Shown piece by piece: positions 2,299 to 8,425 of a stretch of DNA of 64,000 nt; the stretch's first letter is position 1, and the number at the start of each line of letters is the position of its first letter. The position numbers were made by a program, and so were the translations under genes. Origin of the DNA: Candidatus Staskawiczbacteria bacterium (GTDB taxonomy: Bacteria; Patescibacteriota; Minisyncoccia; Minisyncoccales; Staskawiczbacteraceae); assembly GCA_023245155.1 (NCBI GenBank), contig JAHFKV010000001.1, forward strand, positions 267,034 to 331,033. Reading direction: 5' to 3'. A model generated the notes under the pieces. It did no database searches. It was not told where the DNA came from and worked only from the letters and a program-made list of their open reading frames with translations.

Positions 2299-2327
2299 TT
2301 GACATGGTTACTTTACTTTGCTAAAGT
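2299..2327 (+). promoter_or_regulatory. promoter TTGACA-N17-TAAAGT with an embedded TACTTTACTTT box, 6 nt upstream of the ATG
   Basis: TTGACA at 2299-2304, TGc-TAAAGT ending at 2327, ATG at 2334. A near-identical copy lies at 3733-3761 on the minus strand. Confidence 0.6.
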
Positions 2328-2333
2328 GGTTGT

Positions 2334-2654
2334 ATGGACTTCAATAGTAAAGAAAGTAGACAATTAATCAGCGCCATTTTGACGCTTAAGACCTATGACG
2401 AAACCAAGCGTTTTTTGCGTGATTTAATGACGGAAAAGGAAATTACCGAGTTTACCAAACGTTTCACCGCTGCCCAAATGCTGGCTGAAAAAGTGCCTTA
2501 TTCTGTGATTGAGAAAAAGACCGGTTTAAGTTCCACTACCGTGGCCCGTGTTTCCAAATGGCTGAATGGAAAAGAAGGCGGTTACAAAAAAGCTATTCAA
2601 AAACTGCATCATCATACATTCCATCCAAAAAAGGAGGGGATTGCCTTGATGTAA
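2334..2654 (+). CDS. YerC/YecD-family TrpR-like DNA-binding protein
   Basis: 106 aa. FLRDLMTEKEITEFTKRFTAAQML...KTGLSSTTVARVSKWL matches the Trp-repressor-like YerC family pattern. Confidence 0.85.
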   Translation: MDFNSKESRQLISAILTLKTYDETKRFLRDLMTEKEITEFTKRFTAAQMLAEKVPYSVIEKKTGLSSTTVARVSKWLNGKEGGYKKAIQKLHHHTFHPKKEGIALM

Positions 2655-2673
2655 TACAGAACAACATAAAGCC

Positions 2674-2708
2674 AACCCTCTCCTTGTTTGGAGAGGGTTT
2701 TTGTTTTC
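2674..2708 (+). terminator. rho-independent terminator
   Basis: AACCCTCTCC (2674-2683) pairs with GGAGAGGGTT (2690-2699), followed by TTTGTTTT. Confidence 0.75.
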
Positions 2709-2751
2709 CGTACCCTGAACGGCGAACAAATGTCTTTTAGGAGACCGTGTC

Positions 2752-2853
2752 ATGAAATGTTCTTTGCACAAAGGTGGCGAACACACTCGTGAGGGTGGCG
2801 AACATCGCCGGCAGGGTGGTGAGCACCTCCGCCAAGGAGGTGAGCATCGCTAA
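2752..2853 (+). CDS. 33-aa repeat microprotein MKCSLHKGGEHTREGGEHRRQGGEHLRQGGEHR
   Basis: AGGAG at 2739-2743 sits 8 nt before the ATG. Four GGEHxRx units whose GGEH cores differ only at synonymous third positions. A strong + strand terminator follows. Confidence 0.6.
   Translation: MKCSLHKGGEHTREGGEHRRQGGEHLRQGGEHR
2773..2850 (+). repeat. 21-bp tandem repeat (3.7 copies), coding
   Basis: GGTGGCGAACACACTCGTGAG / GGTGGCGAACATCGCCGGCAG / GGTGGTGAGCACCTCCGCCAA / GGAGGTGAGCATCGC. Confidence 0.9.
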
Positions 2854-2878
2854 CAGTGACCGCTAGGTCACTATGCGT

Positions 2879-2919
2879 GGGTAGTTTGGGGCTTGTCCTC
2901 AAACTACCCTTTTTATTTT
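2879..2919 (+). terminator. rho-independent terminator (+ polarity) overlapping the 3' end of the convergent gene
   Basis: 13-bp stem GGGTAGTTTGGGG (2879-2891) pairs with CCTCAAACTACCC (2897-2909), followed by TTTTTATTTT. A smaller hairpin lies at 2855-2872. Confidence 0.8.
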
Positions 2920-3726
2920 CTGTGCCAGGAGAAAGGCTTCTTGTCCTGGTTGATTCTCATTGCCAGAAAAAAGAATTACACTGTTTCTTTTTGCACCCAC
3001 TTTTATTTTTCCGTCAGTGCCGATAATCTGGCCTCTGCGTACTTTTTCAAAATCTTGAAAATACTTTGTAAGAGTGAAAATGGGATTTTTTGTCACATAC
3101 ATATGATATACATTCATGTAAGATTGTTTTTTAGTTTTTAGATTATTGGCAATGTGCCCACGAGCCTTAAGAAAAGCGATAATAGCATCTTCCGCCTTTT
3201 TTAGAGACCGCGGGTCGTTGTGTTGGCCGCATTCAATACAAATTCCTATTTTGCTGATTTGGTTCATGTAATAATCCGTACCACCAGGTTGCACATTGTC
3301 AAAACCCGATACAACTAGCTTAACCGGTAGGTACTTTGCAATATCAAAGCCATTAGCTTGGCAGATGACAAATGCCTTGTTTTTCACTTTACGGCTTGAA
3401 TGTAGATCAAGAAGTGCATCAACCTTATTGAGATACTTTTTTAAAAACTGGGCACGTTGATATTCGTAACTCCTTCTATCTTTTTTTGGAATTCCAGTGC
3501 GATATTTAAACATCCGGTTTAAATCAGCCTCGGTAAACCGCACCTTTCTCTTTATAGCTTCGGGATTTCCATAACCAAAAAACACCCTGCCCTTTTGTAT
3601 GGTAAGAGAGGGGAGTAGTCTTTTGAAAGCTTCTACGCCACATGGTTCATTGCCATGAACTCCCGCTAGAATCATGCTAGTTGGCCCCCCATTCCTCCCC
3701 TTTATTTGAATGATTTTTTCTAGCAT
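2899..3726 (-). CDS. succinylglutamate desuccinylase/aspartoacylase (AstE/AspA) family zinc hydrolase
   Basis: Contains AGVHGNEPCG, DLNRMF and LDLHSS motifs; 275 aa. Confidence 0.85.
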   Translation of the reverse strand: MLEKIIQIKGRNGGPTSMILAGVHGNEPCGVEAFKRLLPSLTIQKGRVFFGYGNPEAIKRKVRFTEADLNRMFKYRTGIPKKDRRSYEYQRAQFLKKYLNKVDALLDLHSSRKVKNKAFVICQANGFDIAKYLPVKLVVSGFDNVQPGGTDYYMNQISKIGICIECGQHNDPRSLKKAEDAIIAFLKARGHIANNLKTKKQSYMNVYHMYVTKNPIFTLTKYFQDFEKVRRGQIIGTDGKIKVGAKRNSVILFSGNENQPGQEAFLLAQKIKRVV

Positions 3727-3731
3727 GATAT

Positions 3732-3761
3732 TACTTTACTAAAGTAAAGTAGCAAAGTCAA
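3732..3761 (-). promoter_or_regulatory. promoter TTGACT-N17-TAAAGT with palindrome TACTTTACT-TT-AGTAAAGTA, 6 nt upstream of the ATG
   Basis: On the minus strand: -35 at 3761-3756, -10 at 3738-3733, start codon at 3726. Perfect 9-bp inverted repeat at 3732-3751. Confidence 0.6.
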
Positions 3762-3771
3762 ATAGAAAAGC

Positions 3772-3799
3772 TTGACAGGAATTTTATAGCTGCTAGACT
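3772..3799 (+). promoter_or_regulatory. promoter TTGACA-N16-TGcTAGACT
   Basis: TTGACA at 3772-3777; extended -10 at 3791-3799. Confidence 0.55.
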
Positions 3800-3805
3800 T
3801 AAACC

Positions 3806-4004
3806 AAGTTCATTTTCAATTGCAATATCCATGACTTCGGTCCCTTTAGCAATAAAGGGGTGGGCCAAGGTCGTCCTTCAATGGACAGGATGGTTTGTGC
3901 AAAAGTGCAAGCCCGGCTTCCTCCGTAACCATAGGATAATTGATGAAACCCAAGAGGGCAGAGTTAATGAGAAAACAACGGCGCTGTTTGAGCGTTTTTT
4001 GTTT
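3806..4004 (+). ncRNA. candidate structured leader RNA or sRNA upstream of the 4145 gene
   Basis: cUUCGg hairpin at 3833-3842. GCAA-capped 6-7-bp hairpin at 3842-3859. Hairpin at 3867-3878. These are enclosed by 3828-3832/3881-3885. Helix 3890-3895/3927-3932. Weak stem plus T6 at 3982-4004. Confidence 0.4.
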
Positions 4005-4144
4005 AAACAAGGGTGGTACCACGAGTAAAAACTTCTCGTCCCTGTGCGTAATTTAGTTATGCATAGAGATGGGAAGTTTTTTTGTACACGGATAATCTGT
4101 GTACGCTTCCTAAACAGTTCTTTACAACACGGAAAGGAGCACCC

Positions 4145-4939
4145 ATGCCCCCATTGATTGATTGGGATCGGCTGACAAGCTTCGTTGCAAAGGAGGCAAA
4201 AACCAGAGGTCGGCCGGACAGATCAACCGTAGTCTTGGACGGCCTCAAGGGCATTGCACAGCAGGCTGGCGATTTTTCCTGCAATCGGCAAATGTTGGTC
4301 AAAATCGCCAAAGTGCTGTTTTCCGACCAGCCGGTCTTGATTGCGCCTTGCTGTCCTGACTACGGTCACCGGGATGGCCGCTACACGTTCAAAGGCCTGG
4401 GCGGCGGAGTTTCTCTACTGGCCCAAAAGCAGATTGCCTTTTTGGATCTGGTGTGTGCCGCCATCCCAAAAATTTCCATCATGCTGATGATGGCGGATCA
4501 CGAAGCGGATGATGAGGAAATTTGCCGAGCCGTGAAAACGCCGCGGGCAGATTTTCTGAAGCTCATTGACCAGTCCATTGAGGCGACCAGAGCCGTTGTC
4601 GCGCCAAGGGGATGGCAAGTTGAGTGCATGACACACGTGATTAAAGGCTTGGTGGCGCGTGAACAAGAAGCCGCTTGCTGGATTGCTGGTCAGGATGGTT
4701 TTCGCTGCCGGCTGACGCTTGATACGATCAATCGTTCACAGATGTATCGTAACATTAATGCTTCCCTTACCAAGGAGGAGATGCTACAGAGAACCATCAG
4801 GACGGCCGCCCAGTACGTGGCTTTGGGTAGGTATGCCACAGAGCAAGAGTGGCTGGTCTGCAATCATACTACGGTCAATTTGTCGTGGTATTTGCAGGTG
4901 CAAACGGCGGTGTTGCACAATCCCGTTTGCGTGTATTAA
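4145..4939 (+). CDS. hypothetical protein (G+C-rich orphan)
   Basis: AAAGGAG at 4133-4139 precedes ATG 4145. 264 aa; contains LIAPCCPDYGHRDGRYTF. I do not recognise the family. Confidence 0.65.
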   Translation: MPPLIDWDRLTSFVAKEAKTRGRPDRSTVVLDGLKGIAQQAGDFSCNRQMLVKIAKVLFSDQPVLIAPCCPDYGHRDGRYTFKGLGGGVSLLAQKQIAFLDLVCAAIPKISIMLMMADHEADDEEICRAVKTPRADFLKLIDQSIEATRAVVAPRGWQVECMTHVIKGLVAREQEAACWIAGQDGFRCRLTLDTINRSQMYRNINASLTKEEMLQRTIRTAAQYVALGRYATEQEWLVCNHTTVNLSWYLQVQTAVLHNPVCVY

Positions 4940-4985: not shown

Positions 4986-5576
4986 ATGATTACTTTTATT
5001 AAAACGTTGCGCTATGAGACAAATCCCAAAGAAACGGATGTGTTTGAATATCTTACGCTTTTAGGTTTGCAAAAAATAGATCCTGCCAGTACTGCAAACT
5101 CTTTTTTAACTCTTGACGCAGATGTTATTTTTTATTCACCATTAAAAAGAGTTGCAACCACGATACGTTTGCCCAAACATAAAAAAATCACGGCCGTAAA
5201 AAAAGATGCCCTTAAAGAAATTGTGTTTGATCTTGAAAAATTATGTTCAAAACAAGAGTATCAAAAGTACAAAAGCAAGATTGTCAGAAGAAGATTTAAA
5301 GAAGCTTTTATCCAAGATGCGCTGCCCGTTAAAAGAGCATTTATTTTTAGAGAAATAAAAGATATATTACGTTTATGTTTAATCTATCAAGAGGCAACCG
5401 TTGCCATTGTTTCGCATTCTTTTCGTTTAAAAATTATGGAAGCGTTTATTAAAACAAAAGGTAAAATTATATCTAACCCGGCATTGATTCATACCTATAT
5501 TTTTGACGATCAAAAGACCTATGAATTCGGTGAAGGTTTTACAATAGATACTAAAGATCTGCAGTTTTTAAGATAA
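4986..5576 (+). CDS. histidine phosphatase (PGAM/SixA-like) family protein
   Basis: Contains YSPLKRVATTI and IVSHSFRLKIMEAF motifs. ATG 4986 follows the terminator. The 4719 extension in the ORF track overlaps the upstream gene. Confidence 0.6.
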   Translation: MITFIKTLRYETNPKETDVFEYLTLLGLQKIDPASTANSFLTLDADVIFYSPLKRVATTIRLPKHKKITAVKKDALKEIVFDLEKLCSKQEYQKYKSKIVRRRFKEAFIQDALPVKRAFIFREIKDILRLCLIYQEATVAIVSHSFRLKIMEAFIKTKGKIISNPALIHTYIFDDQKTYEFGEGFTIDTKDLQFLR

Positions 5577-5761: not shown

Positions 5762-8425
5762 ATGAATCCAACCGGAGCGAATTTTACTAATAAAGCACAA
5801 GAGGCCATTATGGCCGCCCAGGAAATTGCCCAGCAGCGCGGGCAGCAGCAAATTGATGCCCTGCATTTATTGTTAGCGTTGATGACTCAGGAAGGGTCAT
5901 TGGTTTTAACTATTATGCAAAAAATGGGTGTTGATGTTGATGCGCTCAAGCGCAAAACCGAAAGCCAAATCGCAAGGGTTTCTTCTATGCTCAATCCCAC
6001 TGCCTTTGGCCAGTTTTATTTAACGCAAGACATGGCTAAGGTGCTGGACAAGGCCCGGCAAGAATCGCTGAAAATGCAAGACGAATTTATTTCTGTTGAA
6101 CATTTGTTTTTGGCGCTTTTGGATGTGAAAAGCATGGCCCGCGAACTGTTAGAAAAGGCTTCGCTAAAATATGAAGAGGCTTTGAAGGCGTTGGCCCCCA
6201 TTCGCGGTGGTCAACGGATTACCGATCCAGAGCCCGAATCAAAATACCAGGTGATTGAAAAATACACCCAAAACTTAACCGATATGGCCGCGGCCGGAAA
6301 AATTGACCCGATTATTGGCCGGGATAATGAGATTAGGCGTTTGATGCAAATTATTTCCCGCCGGACTAAGAATAATCCGGTGTTGATCGGGGAAGCCGGG
6401 GTGGGAAAAACCGCCATTGTAGAAGGTTTTGCCCAGCGGGTGGCCCGGGGAAATGTACCGGAATTTTTAAAAAACAAAGAAGTGGTTTCGCTGGATTTGG
6501 GGCAGATTATTGCCGGCACCAAGTACCGAGGTGAATTTGAAACCCGGATTAAGGCTCTGTTAAAAGAAATCAACCGCGCTTCCAATAAATATATTTTGTT
6601 TATTGATGAACTGCACACCTTAGTTGGTGCAGGGGCAGCCGAGGGAGCCATTGATGCTTCAAATTTATTGAAGCCGGCCCTGGCCCGCGGGGAATTGCGT
6701 GCCATTGGAGCTACCACCTTAAAAGAATACCAAAAATATATTGAGAAAGATCCGGCATTGGAGCGCCGCTTCCAGCCGATTTTTGTACAAGAACCAAACG
6801 TGGAAGATGCCACCGCTATTTTGCGTGGCATCAAAGAAAAGTATGAAGTGCACCACGGGGTGCGCATTAAAGACTCGGCTATTAAAGCGGCGGTGGAGCT
6901 TTCCAGCCGTTATATCGCCGATCGTTTTTTACCGGACAAAGCCGTAGATTTAATGGACGAAGCGGCCAGTGCTTTAAGATTGGAAATTGAATCTGAGCCC
7001 CAGGAACTGGAAAAGTTTGAAGAAGAAATTACTAAATTAGAAATTGAAAAACAGGCTTTGAAAAAAGAGAAAGATTCTGAGCGGAGGCTGAAAGTGATTG
7101 CTAAAGAGCTCTCTGAAATGAAAGAAAAGGTCAAAGAATTAAGCGCTAAATGGGGGGCAGAAAAAGAGCTGATTAACAAAATCAAAGCTATTCGCGAAAA
7201 GATTGATGCCCTATATAATCAAACGGAAATCGCCCAGCGGGAGGCTGATTTGGAAAAAGTGGCAGAAATAAAATACGGAAAAATTCCTCAACTGGTAAAA
7301 GAACAAAAACAGATTGAGCAAAAACTGGTCAAGTTACAAAAAACCCACCACTTTTTGAAAGAAGAAGTAACCGAAGAAGAGGTAGCCAAAGTGGTTTCGC
7401 GGTGGACGGGGGTTCCGGTTATGCGCCTGATTACCGAAGAAGCCAAAAAGCTAGAATTAATGGAAGCTACTCTTAATCGGCGTGTGATTGGCCAAGAAGA
7501 GGCCATTTCAGCCATTAGTCGCGCTATCCGCCGTGCCCGCGCGGGCATTTCTGAAGCGAATAAACCGCTGGGAAGCTTCTTATTTTTAGGGCCCACGGGC
7601 GTGGGTAAAACCGAAACGGCACGGGCCTTGGCTGAATTTTTGTTTGACGATGAAAAGGCTATGATTCGGCTGGATATGTCCGAATACATGGAACGGCACA
7701 CGGTGTCAAAAATTATCGGATCACCGCCAGGATATGTGGGTTATGAAGAAGCCGGACAGTTAACCGAAAAGGTGCGGCGCAGGCCCTACTCGGTGATTTT
7801 ATTAGACGAAATTGAAAAAGCCCACCCCGAAGTATTCAACATTTTACTGCAAATTTTTGAAGATGGCCGTCTGACTGACAGCAAGGGCCGGATGGTTTCA
7901 TTTAAGAACACTATTATTATTTTAACCAGCAATCTGGGCTCAGACTACATTAACAAAATGTCTTCGATTGGGTTCACCTCAGCTCGTGACGTAGCCCAGC
8001 GCGAAAGCATGAAAGATAAAGTTATGGAATCATTGAAAGAACAATTCCGGCCTGAGTTTATTAATAGAATTGATGAAATTGTGATATTTAATTATCTGAA
8101 AGCTTTGGAAATTAAGAAAATTGTTGATTTGGAAATGTCAAAGGTTCAAAAGCGTTTAGCGGCCAAAGAAATCAGCATTACTATTTCTGAAAAAGCCAAG
8201 GAGTTGTTGCTGAAAGAAGGGTATGATGCCAATTTGGGCGCCCGCCCATTAAAACGGGTAATTCAACGATTAATTTTAGATCCCCTAAGTATTAAAATTG
8301 TTACCAGTGAAATCGCGGAAGGTAGTAGAGTGTTTATTGATGAGCAGGGTGGAAAAATAACGTTTGAAATCCCAAAACTACTGCCTAAAATGAGTTCACC
8401 GGAAAAAGTTTCTTCACGCAAATAA
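5762..8425 (+). CDS. clpB: ATP-dependent chaperone ClpB
   Basis: 887 aa. Two AAA+ modules (GEAGVGKT and GPTGVGKT Walker A motifs) with a long coiled-coil middle domain. Confidence 0.97.
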   Translation: MNPTGANFTNKAQEAIMAAQEIAQQRGQQQIDALHLLLALMTQEGSLVLTIMQKMGVDVDALKRKTESQIARVSSMLNPTAFGQFYLTQDMAKVLDKARQESLKMQDEFISVEHLFLALLDVKSMARELLEKASLKYEEALKALAPIRGGQRITDPEPESKYQVIEKYTQNLTDMAAAGKIDPIIGRDNEIRRLMQIISRRTKNNPVLIGEAGVGKTAIVEGFAQRVARGNVPEFLKNKEVVSLDLGQIIAGTKYRGEFETRIKALLKEINRASNKYILFIDELHTLVGAGAAEGAIDASNLLKPALARGELRAIGATTLKEYQKYIEKDPALERRFQPIFVQEPNVEDATAILRGIKEKYEVHHGVRIKDSAIKAAVELSSRYIADRFLPDKAVDLMDEAASALRLEIESEPQELEKFEEEITKLEIEKQALKKEKDSERRLKVIAKELSEMKEKVKELSAKWGAEKELINKIKAIREKIDALYNQTEIAQREADLEKVAEIKYGKIPQLVKEQKQIEQKLVKLQKTHHFLKEEVTEEEVAKVVSRWTGVPVMRLITEEAKKLELMEATLNRRVIGQEEAISAISRAIRRARAGISEANKPLGSFLFLGPTGVGKTETARALAEFLFDDEKAMIRLDMSEYMERHTVSKIIGSPPGYVGYEEAGQLTEKVRRRPYSVILLDEIEKAHPEVFNILLQIFEDGRLTDSKGRMVSFKNTIIILTSNLGSDYINKMSSIGFTSARDVAQRESMKDKVMESLKEQFRPEFINRIDEIVIFNYLKALEIKKIVDLEMSKVQKRLAAKEISITISEKAKELLLKEGYDANLGARPLKRVIQRLILDPLSIKIVTSEIAEGSRVFIDEQGGKITFEIPKLLPKMSSPEKVSSRK

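Follow-up and report, generated by a model that had tools for sequence, protein, structure and literature searches.

In a 64,000-nt stretch of a Candidatus Staskawiczbacteria genome (GenBank assembly GCA_023245155.1, contig JAHFKV010000001.1, positions 267,034 to 331,033; all of it hereafter called the window), a nearly identical 29-bp element occurs twice, on opposite strands. One copy precedes yerC, which encodes a regulator of the TrpR family, and the other precedes a convergent gene for a putative deacylase of the AstE/AspA family. What are these elements, and why would just these two genes share them? Our analysis indicates that they are probably operators for YerC (HisR), an element of a known kind that is found here in a new phylum, the Candidate Phyla Radiation (CPR, or Patescibacteria), with predicted leaderless promoters and a new target.

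The first element, TTGACATGGTTACTTTACTTTGCTAAAGT (2299-2327, plus strand), consists of a -35 box TTGACA (2299-2304), a 17-nt spacer (TGGTTACTTTACTTTGC) and a -10 box TAAAGT (2322-2327), and is followed by the six bases ggttgt and the yerC ATG at 2334. A promoter scan found 10 of 12 matches with a TG ahead of the -10 box, and reading of the sequence places this extended -10 TG at 2319-2320. The second element, TTGACTTTGCTACTTTACTTTAGTAAAGT (3761-3733, minus strand), emerged both from reading the sequence and from the promoter scan. It has a -35 box TTGACT (3761-3756), a 17-nt spacer (TTGCTACTTTACTTTAG) and a -10 box TAAAGT (3738-3733), and the bases aatatc separate it from the ATG of the AstE-like gene at 3726 on the minus strand. 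As the original prediction had it, the two copies are identical at 24 of 29 positions and differ at five, and their spacing is equal, with a 17-nt spacer and 6 nt to the ATG at both sites. The inverted repeat that it described in the second copy, overlapping the -10 box, is likewise seen in the sequence: the 20-mer at 3732-3751 has perfect 9-nt arms around a 2-nt centre. We predict HisR/YerC operator boxes at 2309-2328 (box 1, TACTTTACTTTGCTAAAGTG, which divides into TACTTTA-CTTTGC-TAAAGTG) and at 3732-3751 (box 2, TACTTTACTTTAGTAAAGTA, read on the minus strand from 3751 to 3732 as TACTTTA-CTTTAG-TAAAGTA). The right half-site of box 1 coincides with the -10 hexamer, and the 7+7 half-sites of box 2 are perfect. 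With a position weight matrix (PWM) derived from homologous upstream regions, box 1 scored 30.8 bits and box 2 scored 25.9 bits, where the maximum is 32.4.

A degenerate version of the 29-mer matched exactly twice in the window and never in 100 shuffles, and its 19-mer core, TACTTTACTTTNNTAAAGT, had two exact matches against 0.33 expected at up to three mismatches. This excludes a chance origin of the paired sites. A scan of the window for TTGAC-N17(+/-1)-TAnnnT-N4-9-ATG followed by an open reading frame (ORF) of at least 50 aa yielded only yerC and the AstE-like gene. The relaxed pattern ACTTTA-N6-TAAAGT, with up to two mismatches allowed, gave six matches in the window where 4.65 were expected, and the window therefore holds no credible extra boxes. 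The two copies are alike only within the 29 bp, at promoter and operator positions, and have diverged everywhere else.

Which protein would bind such an element? The 106-aa product of yerC (2334-2654, plus strand; predicted leaderless) matched the Trp_repressor family (PF01371, 4.7e-20) and scored above the cutoff of the NCBIfam YerC/YecD family TIGR02531 (63.9 bits, cutoff 42.2), which bears out the earlier identification of a TrpR-like yerC. TrpR proper was considered and rejected, as the protein reached 17 bits against TIGR01321, where the cutoff is 67.25, and the operator is not of the TGTACTAGTTAACTAGTACA type. The top match in a search of PDB sequences was 3G1C (E 3.7e-13), which PMC9413887 regards as the E. 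eligens HisR. The yerC gene of B. subtilis codes for HisR, a repressor of the TrpR family that responds to histidine (Ashniev et al. 2022, PMC9413887). In Firmicutes, Actinobacteria and Synergistetes, HisR has a palindromic operator of 20 bp, cacTTTAnnnnnnTAAAgtg, or cacTTTA-N6-TAAAgtg; DNA binding by R. gnavus HisR was stimulated in vitro by L-histidine, and an autoregulatory site lies upstream of hisR in about half of the genomes studied (PMC9413887). Both boxes in the window fit this consensus, and its centre of symmetry is that of the palindrome in the original prediction. The proposal of an operator for a dimeric TrpR-like repressor thus gains support from the match to the published HisR consensus (PMC9413887) and from conservation in relatives. 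As the family has already been characterised as a histidine repressor, the type of operator is not new. CPR bacteria were outside the scope of the HisR study and an AstE-type target is not mentioned there (PMC9413887), and in the literature that we searched no paper linked HisR and CPR.

Homologs of YerC and of the AstE-like protein were found in Ryan-, Giovannoni-, Kaiser-, Uhr-, Taylor-, Specht-, Colwell- and Sungiibacteria, all of them CPR lineages. Aligned CPR homologs of YerC are 65-90% identical, and M1 and the helix-turn-helix segment TGLSSTTVARV.KWLNG are invariant in the 19 aligned sequences. CPR YerC also has a C-terminal extension with a near-invariant LHHH motif (residues 91-94; H92 and H93 in at least 90% of the 19 sequences), of which the PDB alignment shows no counterpart in E. 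eligens HisR. This tail could be a metal- or ligand-binding feature.

To follow the element beyond the window, we compared 80 metagenome loci encoding YerC relatives, whose yerC sites supplied the PWM. In nearly all 80, yerC is preceded by cTTGACtaaa.C.CTTTACTTTG(C/A)TAAAGT, six bases and the ATG. Across 69 unique yerC upstream regions, TTGAC, CTTTA and TAAAGT are near-invariant, and positions further upstream are uninformative. A T and a G at -15/-14 are also conserved, which corresponds to an extended -10 motif. When all loci were pooled and a box had to agree with the half-sites at 11 or more of 14 positions and lie no more than 60 nt from the start codon, 95 of 100 distinct regions upstream of yerC (nearly all of them from CPR bacteria) had one; the gap to the start was exactly 6 nt in 66 of the 100 and 7 nt in a further three. 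At one locus (L067), the box lies 30 nt further upstream of yerC. About half of the yerC lineages have a second, weaker HisR-like box over the -35 box, of the form ACTTTA-CTTGAC-TAAA(gt/cc) and at -45 to -26 from the yerC ATG (L004-L008, L014, L043, L048, L058 and others). The centres of this box and the main box are 18 bp apart, a distance that suggests tandem binding of dimers. The yerC promoter in the window does not have this second box.

The conservation extends to the second target. When the PWM was run over the fetched sequence (about 0.46 Mb, nearly all from the surroundings of yerC in related CPR genomes), the further strong sites lay, with few exceptions, 1.2-2.4 kb downstream from yerC and on the strand opposite to it, and each such opposite-strand site stood 6-7 nt before an ortholog of the 275-aa AstE-like protein of the window. 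The motif is therefore not a generic promoter spacer found upstream of many unrelated genes: the window has only the two sites, and strong matches in the scanned sequence are almost confined to yerC and AstE-like genes. In 30 loci the downstream flank reached 2.6 kb or more, and 12 of these have a convergent AstE-like gene. Starting from AstE homologs, the gene was convergent with yerC and a gene for an acetyltransferase of the GNAT family in 5 of 7 contexts. As for whether relatives keep the box ahead of an AstE-family gene, they do so in 26 of 28 distinct upstream regions, usually in convergence with yerC. Here the gap from the -10 box to the start is 6 nt in 14 of the 28 and 7 nt in six more. 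The box is missing from two AstE-like genes, one in L205 that comes after hisS and tRNA-His and one in L206 that is solitary and has an ordinary promoter. The proposed mini-regulon of YerC and the deacylase is supported in that both genes carry the conserved box; in most relatives the regulon would also take in a gene co-directional with yerC.

In several CPR lineages (L023, L032, L036, L029/L030, L037 and L038) the promoter copies of yerC and the AstE-like gene show no difference at all. Those of L023, L032 and L036 agree perfectly over at least 90 nt, including a GC-rich hairpin upstream of the -35 box, and the sequences differ between genomes. Copies that are identical within genomes and different between them indicate concerted evolution, or gene conversion between the inverted copies. 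As the long inverted copies of these three loci flank a module of about 2 kb, they might alternatively mark a cassette of yerC and the deacylase that is mobile or invertible, as its terminal inverted repeats or its recombination sites. We regard this as highly improbable. No transposase or recombinase gene lies in or beside the module, and the module occurs in many CPR lineages with diverging proteins, which, without recourse to a tree, favours long residence over recent spread. Flipping a segment between identical inward-facing promoters would change nothing, and in the window the identity is confined to the 29-bp promoter/operator. Gene conversion between the promoters is the more natural reading of the long repeats.

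A simpler explanation of the pair would be a duplicated strong promoter, with an extended -10 box and a favourable spacer, that keeps both genes constitutively co-expressed and in which the palindrome is incidental. The conserved T and G at -15/-14 are those of an extended -10 TGn, and promoter copies that are identical over at least 90 nt in some relatives are as expected after duplication or gene conversion. However, no promoter model calls for the left half-site CTTTA, which mirrors TAAAG and is made up of conserved bases of the spacer, and site 2 has no TG and still keeps the palindrome. Moreover, in other phyla the palindrome precedes histidine genes without this promoter frame around it, its sequence agrees with an operator that has been validated by experiment (PMC9413887), and the copies in the window have diverged everywhere except at promoter and operator positions. 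A promoter without an operator is thus very unlikely.

The position of the boxes also bears on how the two genes are translated. The TAA within TAAAGT is an in-frame stop codon 12 nt upstream of the ATG in both genes, so neither ORF can begin further upstream. There is no Shine-Dalgarno sequence in the 6-nt gaps (ggttgt and aatatc), and the N-terminus of YerC aligns from M1 in 19 homologs. As the ATG lies 6 nt past the -10 box, the predicted transcription start is the A of the ATG or a base beside it, which would make the mRNAs of yerC and the AstE-like gene leaderless. The T at -1, before the A of the ATG, is conserved in the 69 unique yerC upstream regions, and the pair T(-1)/A(+1) fits the pyrimidine/purine preference at transcription starts. 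In the window as a whole, a crude scan for Shine-Dalgarno motifs found them in 23 of 54 ORFs, often at internal positions, and clear motifs at likely starts were infrequent.

Taken together, we consider it likely that the two elements work as follows. Each 29-bp element would be a sigma-70-type promoter (TTGAC, a 17-nt spacer and TAAAGT) with a built-in 20-bp YerC operator. As TAAAGT serves as right half-site and -10 hexamer alike, RNA polymerase would be occluded whenever a YerC dimer is bound. By the precedents of HisR and TrpR, a YerC dimer with its co-repressor would sit on the spacer and the -10 box and block the polymerase. The outcome would be negative autoregulation of yerC together with co-repression of the convergent deacylase gene. 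Homology and gene context make L-histidine the most likely co-repressor. The geometry predicts that transcription begins at the A of the ATG and yields leaderless mRNAs.

What does the second target encode? The AstE-like gene (2899-3726, minus strand; predicted leaderless and convergent with yerC) encodes a predicted zinc deacylase of 275 aa. The family assignment in the original prediction held up, as the protein matched AstE_AspA_cat (PF24827) at 9.6e-23. It fell short of the equivalog cutoffs for aspartoacylase (NF002601, 71.2 bits against 180) and AstE (TIGR03242, 50.7 against 305.65), and by sequence it is a member of the AstE/AspA superfamily only. H24, E27, R63, N70, R71, H109 and E165 are invariant in 17 homologs. 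From the active site of human aspartoacylase, we take H24, E27 and H109 to bind zinc, R63, N70 and R71 to bind the carboxylate, and E165 to be catalytic. The homologs are 53-75% identical, and every named source is a CPR lineage or an unclassified bacterium. A hairpin terminator between the convergent units (2879-2909) has a 13-bp stem followed by TTTTTATTTT on the plus strand and takes in the stop codon of the AstE-like gene.

Genomes differ in what fills the slot between yerC and the deacylase. In relatives it holds, co-directional with yerC, a gene for a GNAT protein with a zinc-ribbon insert (at least 28 loci), a gene for a 295-aa protein (at least 23 loci) or hisG. The 295-aa protein (MQKLISYFTDG..TIGAEVETQF..) takes the place of the GNAT in L036 (5427-6314) and at least 22 other loci. 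It had no match among Pfam, NCBIfam or PDB sequences, and a search of PDB sequences with the GNAT gave no useful match. Queries with the GNAT and with the 295-aa protein found no match within the window. The slot of the GNAT, the 295-aa protein or hisG is filled, in the window and in its closest relative (L002), by a gene for a 33-aa (GGEH)4 microprotein (MKCSLHKGGEHTREGGEHRRQGGEHLRQGGEHR, 2752-2853, plus strand). This gene has an AGGAG ribosome-binding site and a downstream terminator, and it follows the strong intrinsic terminator of yerC (2674-2699, plus strand; a 10-bp stem, then TTTTTGTTTT), which is kept in L002. The microprotein is kept there too (5424-5525, in a locus that is 91% related), and changes at third codon positions spare the first three GGEH repeats. 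Given this conservation, the microprotein gene is probably real. A type II toxin-antitoxin reading of yerC and the GNAT was rejected, as YerC is highly conserved (65-90%), the slot holds unrelated genes elsewhere and the GNAT is absent from the window.

We next consider the evidence that links this system to histidine. Among the matches listed for the 19-mer core outside CPR were sites that precede genes for amino-acid-binding lipoproteins (SBP_bac_3) in Firmicutes and Collinsella, and one in a Clostridia genome ahead of a gene for a HisZ-HisG fusion. As a positive control, the matches outside CPR reproduce the published HisR regulon. Within CPR, two loci (L014, 5402-6391; L054, 5225-6331) have a gene for long-form HisG (PF01634 and PF08029) directly after yerC, and in both a gene for histidyl-tRNA synthetase lies convergent 1.7 kb away. 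The region 2691-7557 of L205, a locus without yerC, contains genes for an aromatic (His-type) ammonia-lyase (minus strand), hisS (plus), tRNA-His (5825-5895, plus), the AstE-like protein (plus) and the GNAT (minus). Here the AstE-like gene comes directly after hisS and tRNA-His and is itself closely followed by the GNAT gene, and the ammonia-lyase gene adjoins hisS. The hisS promoter of L205, TTTACA-N17-TAAAGT, contains a degenerate box, CACTATAtcgtgaTAAAGTC, at 4364-4383. As the motif occurs at his-type genes in other phyla, hisG follows yerC and hisS with tRNA-His precedes the AstE-like gene, histidine is most likely the effector of CPR YerC. Speculatively, the deacylase could be a histidine-related amidohydrolase that would free histidine from an N-acyl or peptide-linked form or precursor. 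It is tempting to go one step further, and with considerable reserve we suggest a histidine-sensing module across CPR, in which HisR/YerC, acting on leaderless promoters built around its operator, might control an amide-forming enzyme (the zinc-ribbon GNAT or the 295-aa protein) and the AstE-like deacylase. Such a module might belong to a previously undescribed acyl-histidine or histidine-salvage pathway in auxotrophic symbionts, with the (GGEH)4 microprotein having replaced the amide-forming enzyme in the lineage of the window.

Several observations weigh against this interpretation of the locus or limit its reach. The boxes in the window precede only yerC and the AstE-like gene, neither of them a recognisable gene for histidine biosynthesis or transport; queries with HisRS and HutH had no match within the window, and other his genes were not searched for. 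Further targets of YerC may lie beyond the 64 kb. The effector can change within the family, as HisR2 paralogs appear to have switched to tyrosine/tyramine genes (PMC9413887). Repressing the GNAT and the deacylase together at high histidine does not fit a simple storage cycle of acetyl-histidine. The AstE-like gene of L206 has no box, and in L003, a relative that is 84% identical, about 190 nt separate the box-bearing promoter (TTGACAggaaCGCTTTACTTTGCTAAAGT) from the yerC ATG. In the same region of L003 (4787-5003), a TATAAT lies directly ahead of the yerC ATG, a leadered exception to the 6-nt design, and no AstE gene is found within 4 kb there.

Some of these points would also fit a real operator whose effector is not histidine (another amino acid, an N-acyl amino acid or a metal at the C-terminal HHH) and whose targets serve an unrelated pathway of acylation and deacylation. 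Besides the regulon in the window, which has no his gene, and the proposed switch of the HisR2 paralogs, whose specificity seems altered (PMC9413887), this alternative finds support in the protein itself: of the acidic helix-2 positions that may contact histidine according to the HisR study (PMC9413887), only some are acidic when the YerC of the window is aligned to E. eligens HisR. The near-invariant LHHH tail of CPR YerC and, in the lineage of the window, the (GGEH)4 peptide within the module point the same way. However, hisG directly after yerC, or hisS and tRNA-His directly upstream of the AstE-like gene, recurs in several CPR lineages, and the half-sites are those of the histidine-type consensus and not of the TrpR type. 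We therefore think another effector unlikely, although less so than a promoter without an operator, and retain histidine as the predicted co-repressor.

How does the locus compare with known systems? Like the HisR regulon (PMC9413887), it combines a TrpR-family regulator of the YerC/YecD type, a 20-bp palindrome in the promoter region and a putative autoregulatory site, and repression would likewise result from binding at the promoter. Unlike that regulon (PMC9413887), it is found in CPR/Patescibacteria, and its target is an AstE/AspA deacylase instead of his biosynthesis or hisXYZ/yuiF transport. CPR relatives add the GNAT or the 295-aa protein, and the right half-site would here be the -10 box of a promoter that starts at the ATG, which also sets the locus apart from the published cases (PMC9413887). 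The E. coli TrpR/trpR system shares the PF01371 family, with its small dimeric helix-turn-helix repressors, and a palindrome overlapping the promoter, and an amino-acid co-repressor and autoregulation are predicted here as well. However, the operator of TrpR is of the TGTACTAGTTAACTAGTACA type, and the protein in the window does not reach the cutoff of the TrpR model (17 bits against 67.25).

Leaderless mRNAs are known from lambda cI, transcribed from PRM, and from many genes of Actinobacteria and Deinococcus. As in lambda cI, the AUG of both genes in the window lies about 6-7 nt after the -10 box and leaves no room for a Shine-Dalgarno sequence. Unlike the leaderless genes of Actinobacteria and Deinococcus, the design in the window is limited to the two genes of the regulon. 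Pairs of an acetyltransferase and an AstE/AspA deacetylase are also familiar, namely EctA and DoeB in ectoine metabolism and NAT8L and aspartoacylase. In most relatives a GNAT is similarly paired with the AstE/AspA hydrolase, in which the zinc and carboxylate-binding residues are invariant. Unlike in EctA/DoeB and NAT8L/aspartoacylase, the deacylase scores below the equivalog cutoffs and the lineage of the window has no GNAT.

A candidate T-box leader (3772-4144, plus strand) stands back to back with the promoter of the deacylase and has its own promoter, TTGACA-N16-TAGACT, at 3772-3799. The Rfam T-box model matched 3822-4046 over its full length with 41.5 bits (E 5.5e-8), below the gathering score of 93, and the canonical AAGGGUGGUACCACGAG is present. 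The antiterminator overlaps, in its 3' half, with a terminator hairpin at 4027-4081 that has a U-run (z -4.45). Stem I is remarkably short, and from the UGGU bulge the tRNA would have A as its discriminator base. The specifier codon may be UUC or AAU and does not resemble a codon for histidine. The leader precedes a 264-aa gene (4145-4939), whose product had no match in Pfam or NCBIfam. There is no T-box beside the module in L002. At the gathering threshold, Rfam found no family in the window, and the window contains no tRNA genes.

To our knowledge, few regulatory circuits have been described in CPR/Patescibacteria, and a conserved circuit that is defined by its sequence provides a regulatory handle in this little-understood group. 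The type of operator was known, whereas its occurrence in the CPR phylum, the predicted leaderless promoters and the AstE-like target are new, and the conserved module is a testable lead. Naming the regulator, its operator and its likely ligand gives a histidine-related hypothesis for the AstE-like deacylase and for the partner families represented by the GNAT and the 295-aa protein. With an operator half-site that would be the -10 box and transcription that would start at the ATG, the design is compact and could be used to mark promoters and leaderless genes in CPR genomes.

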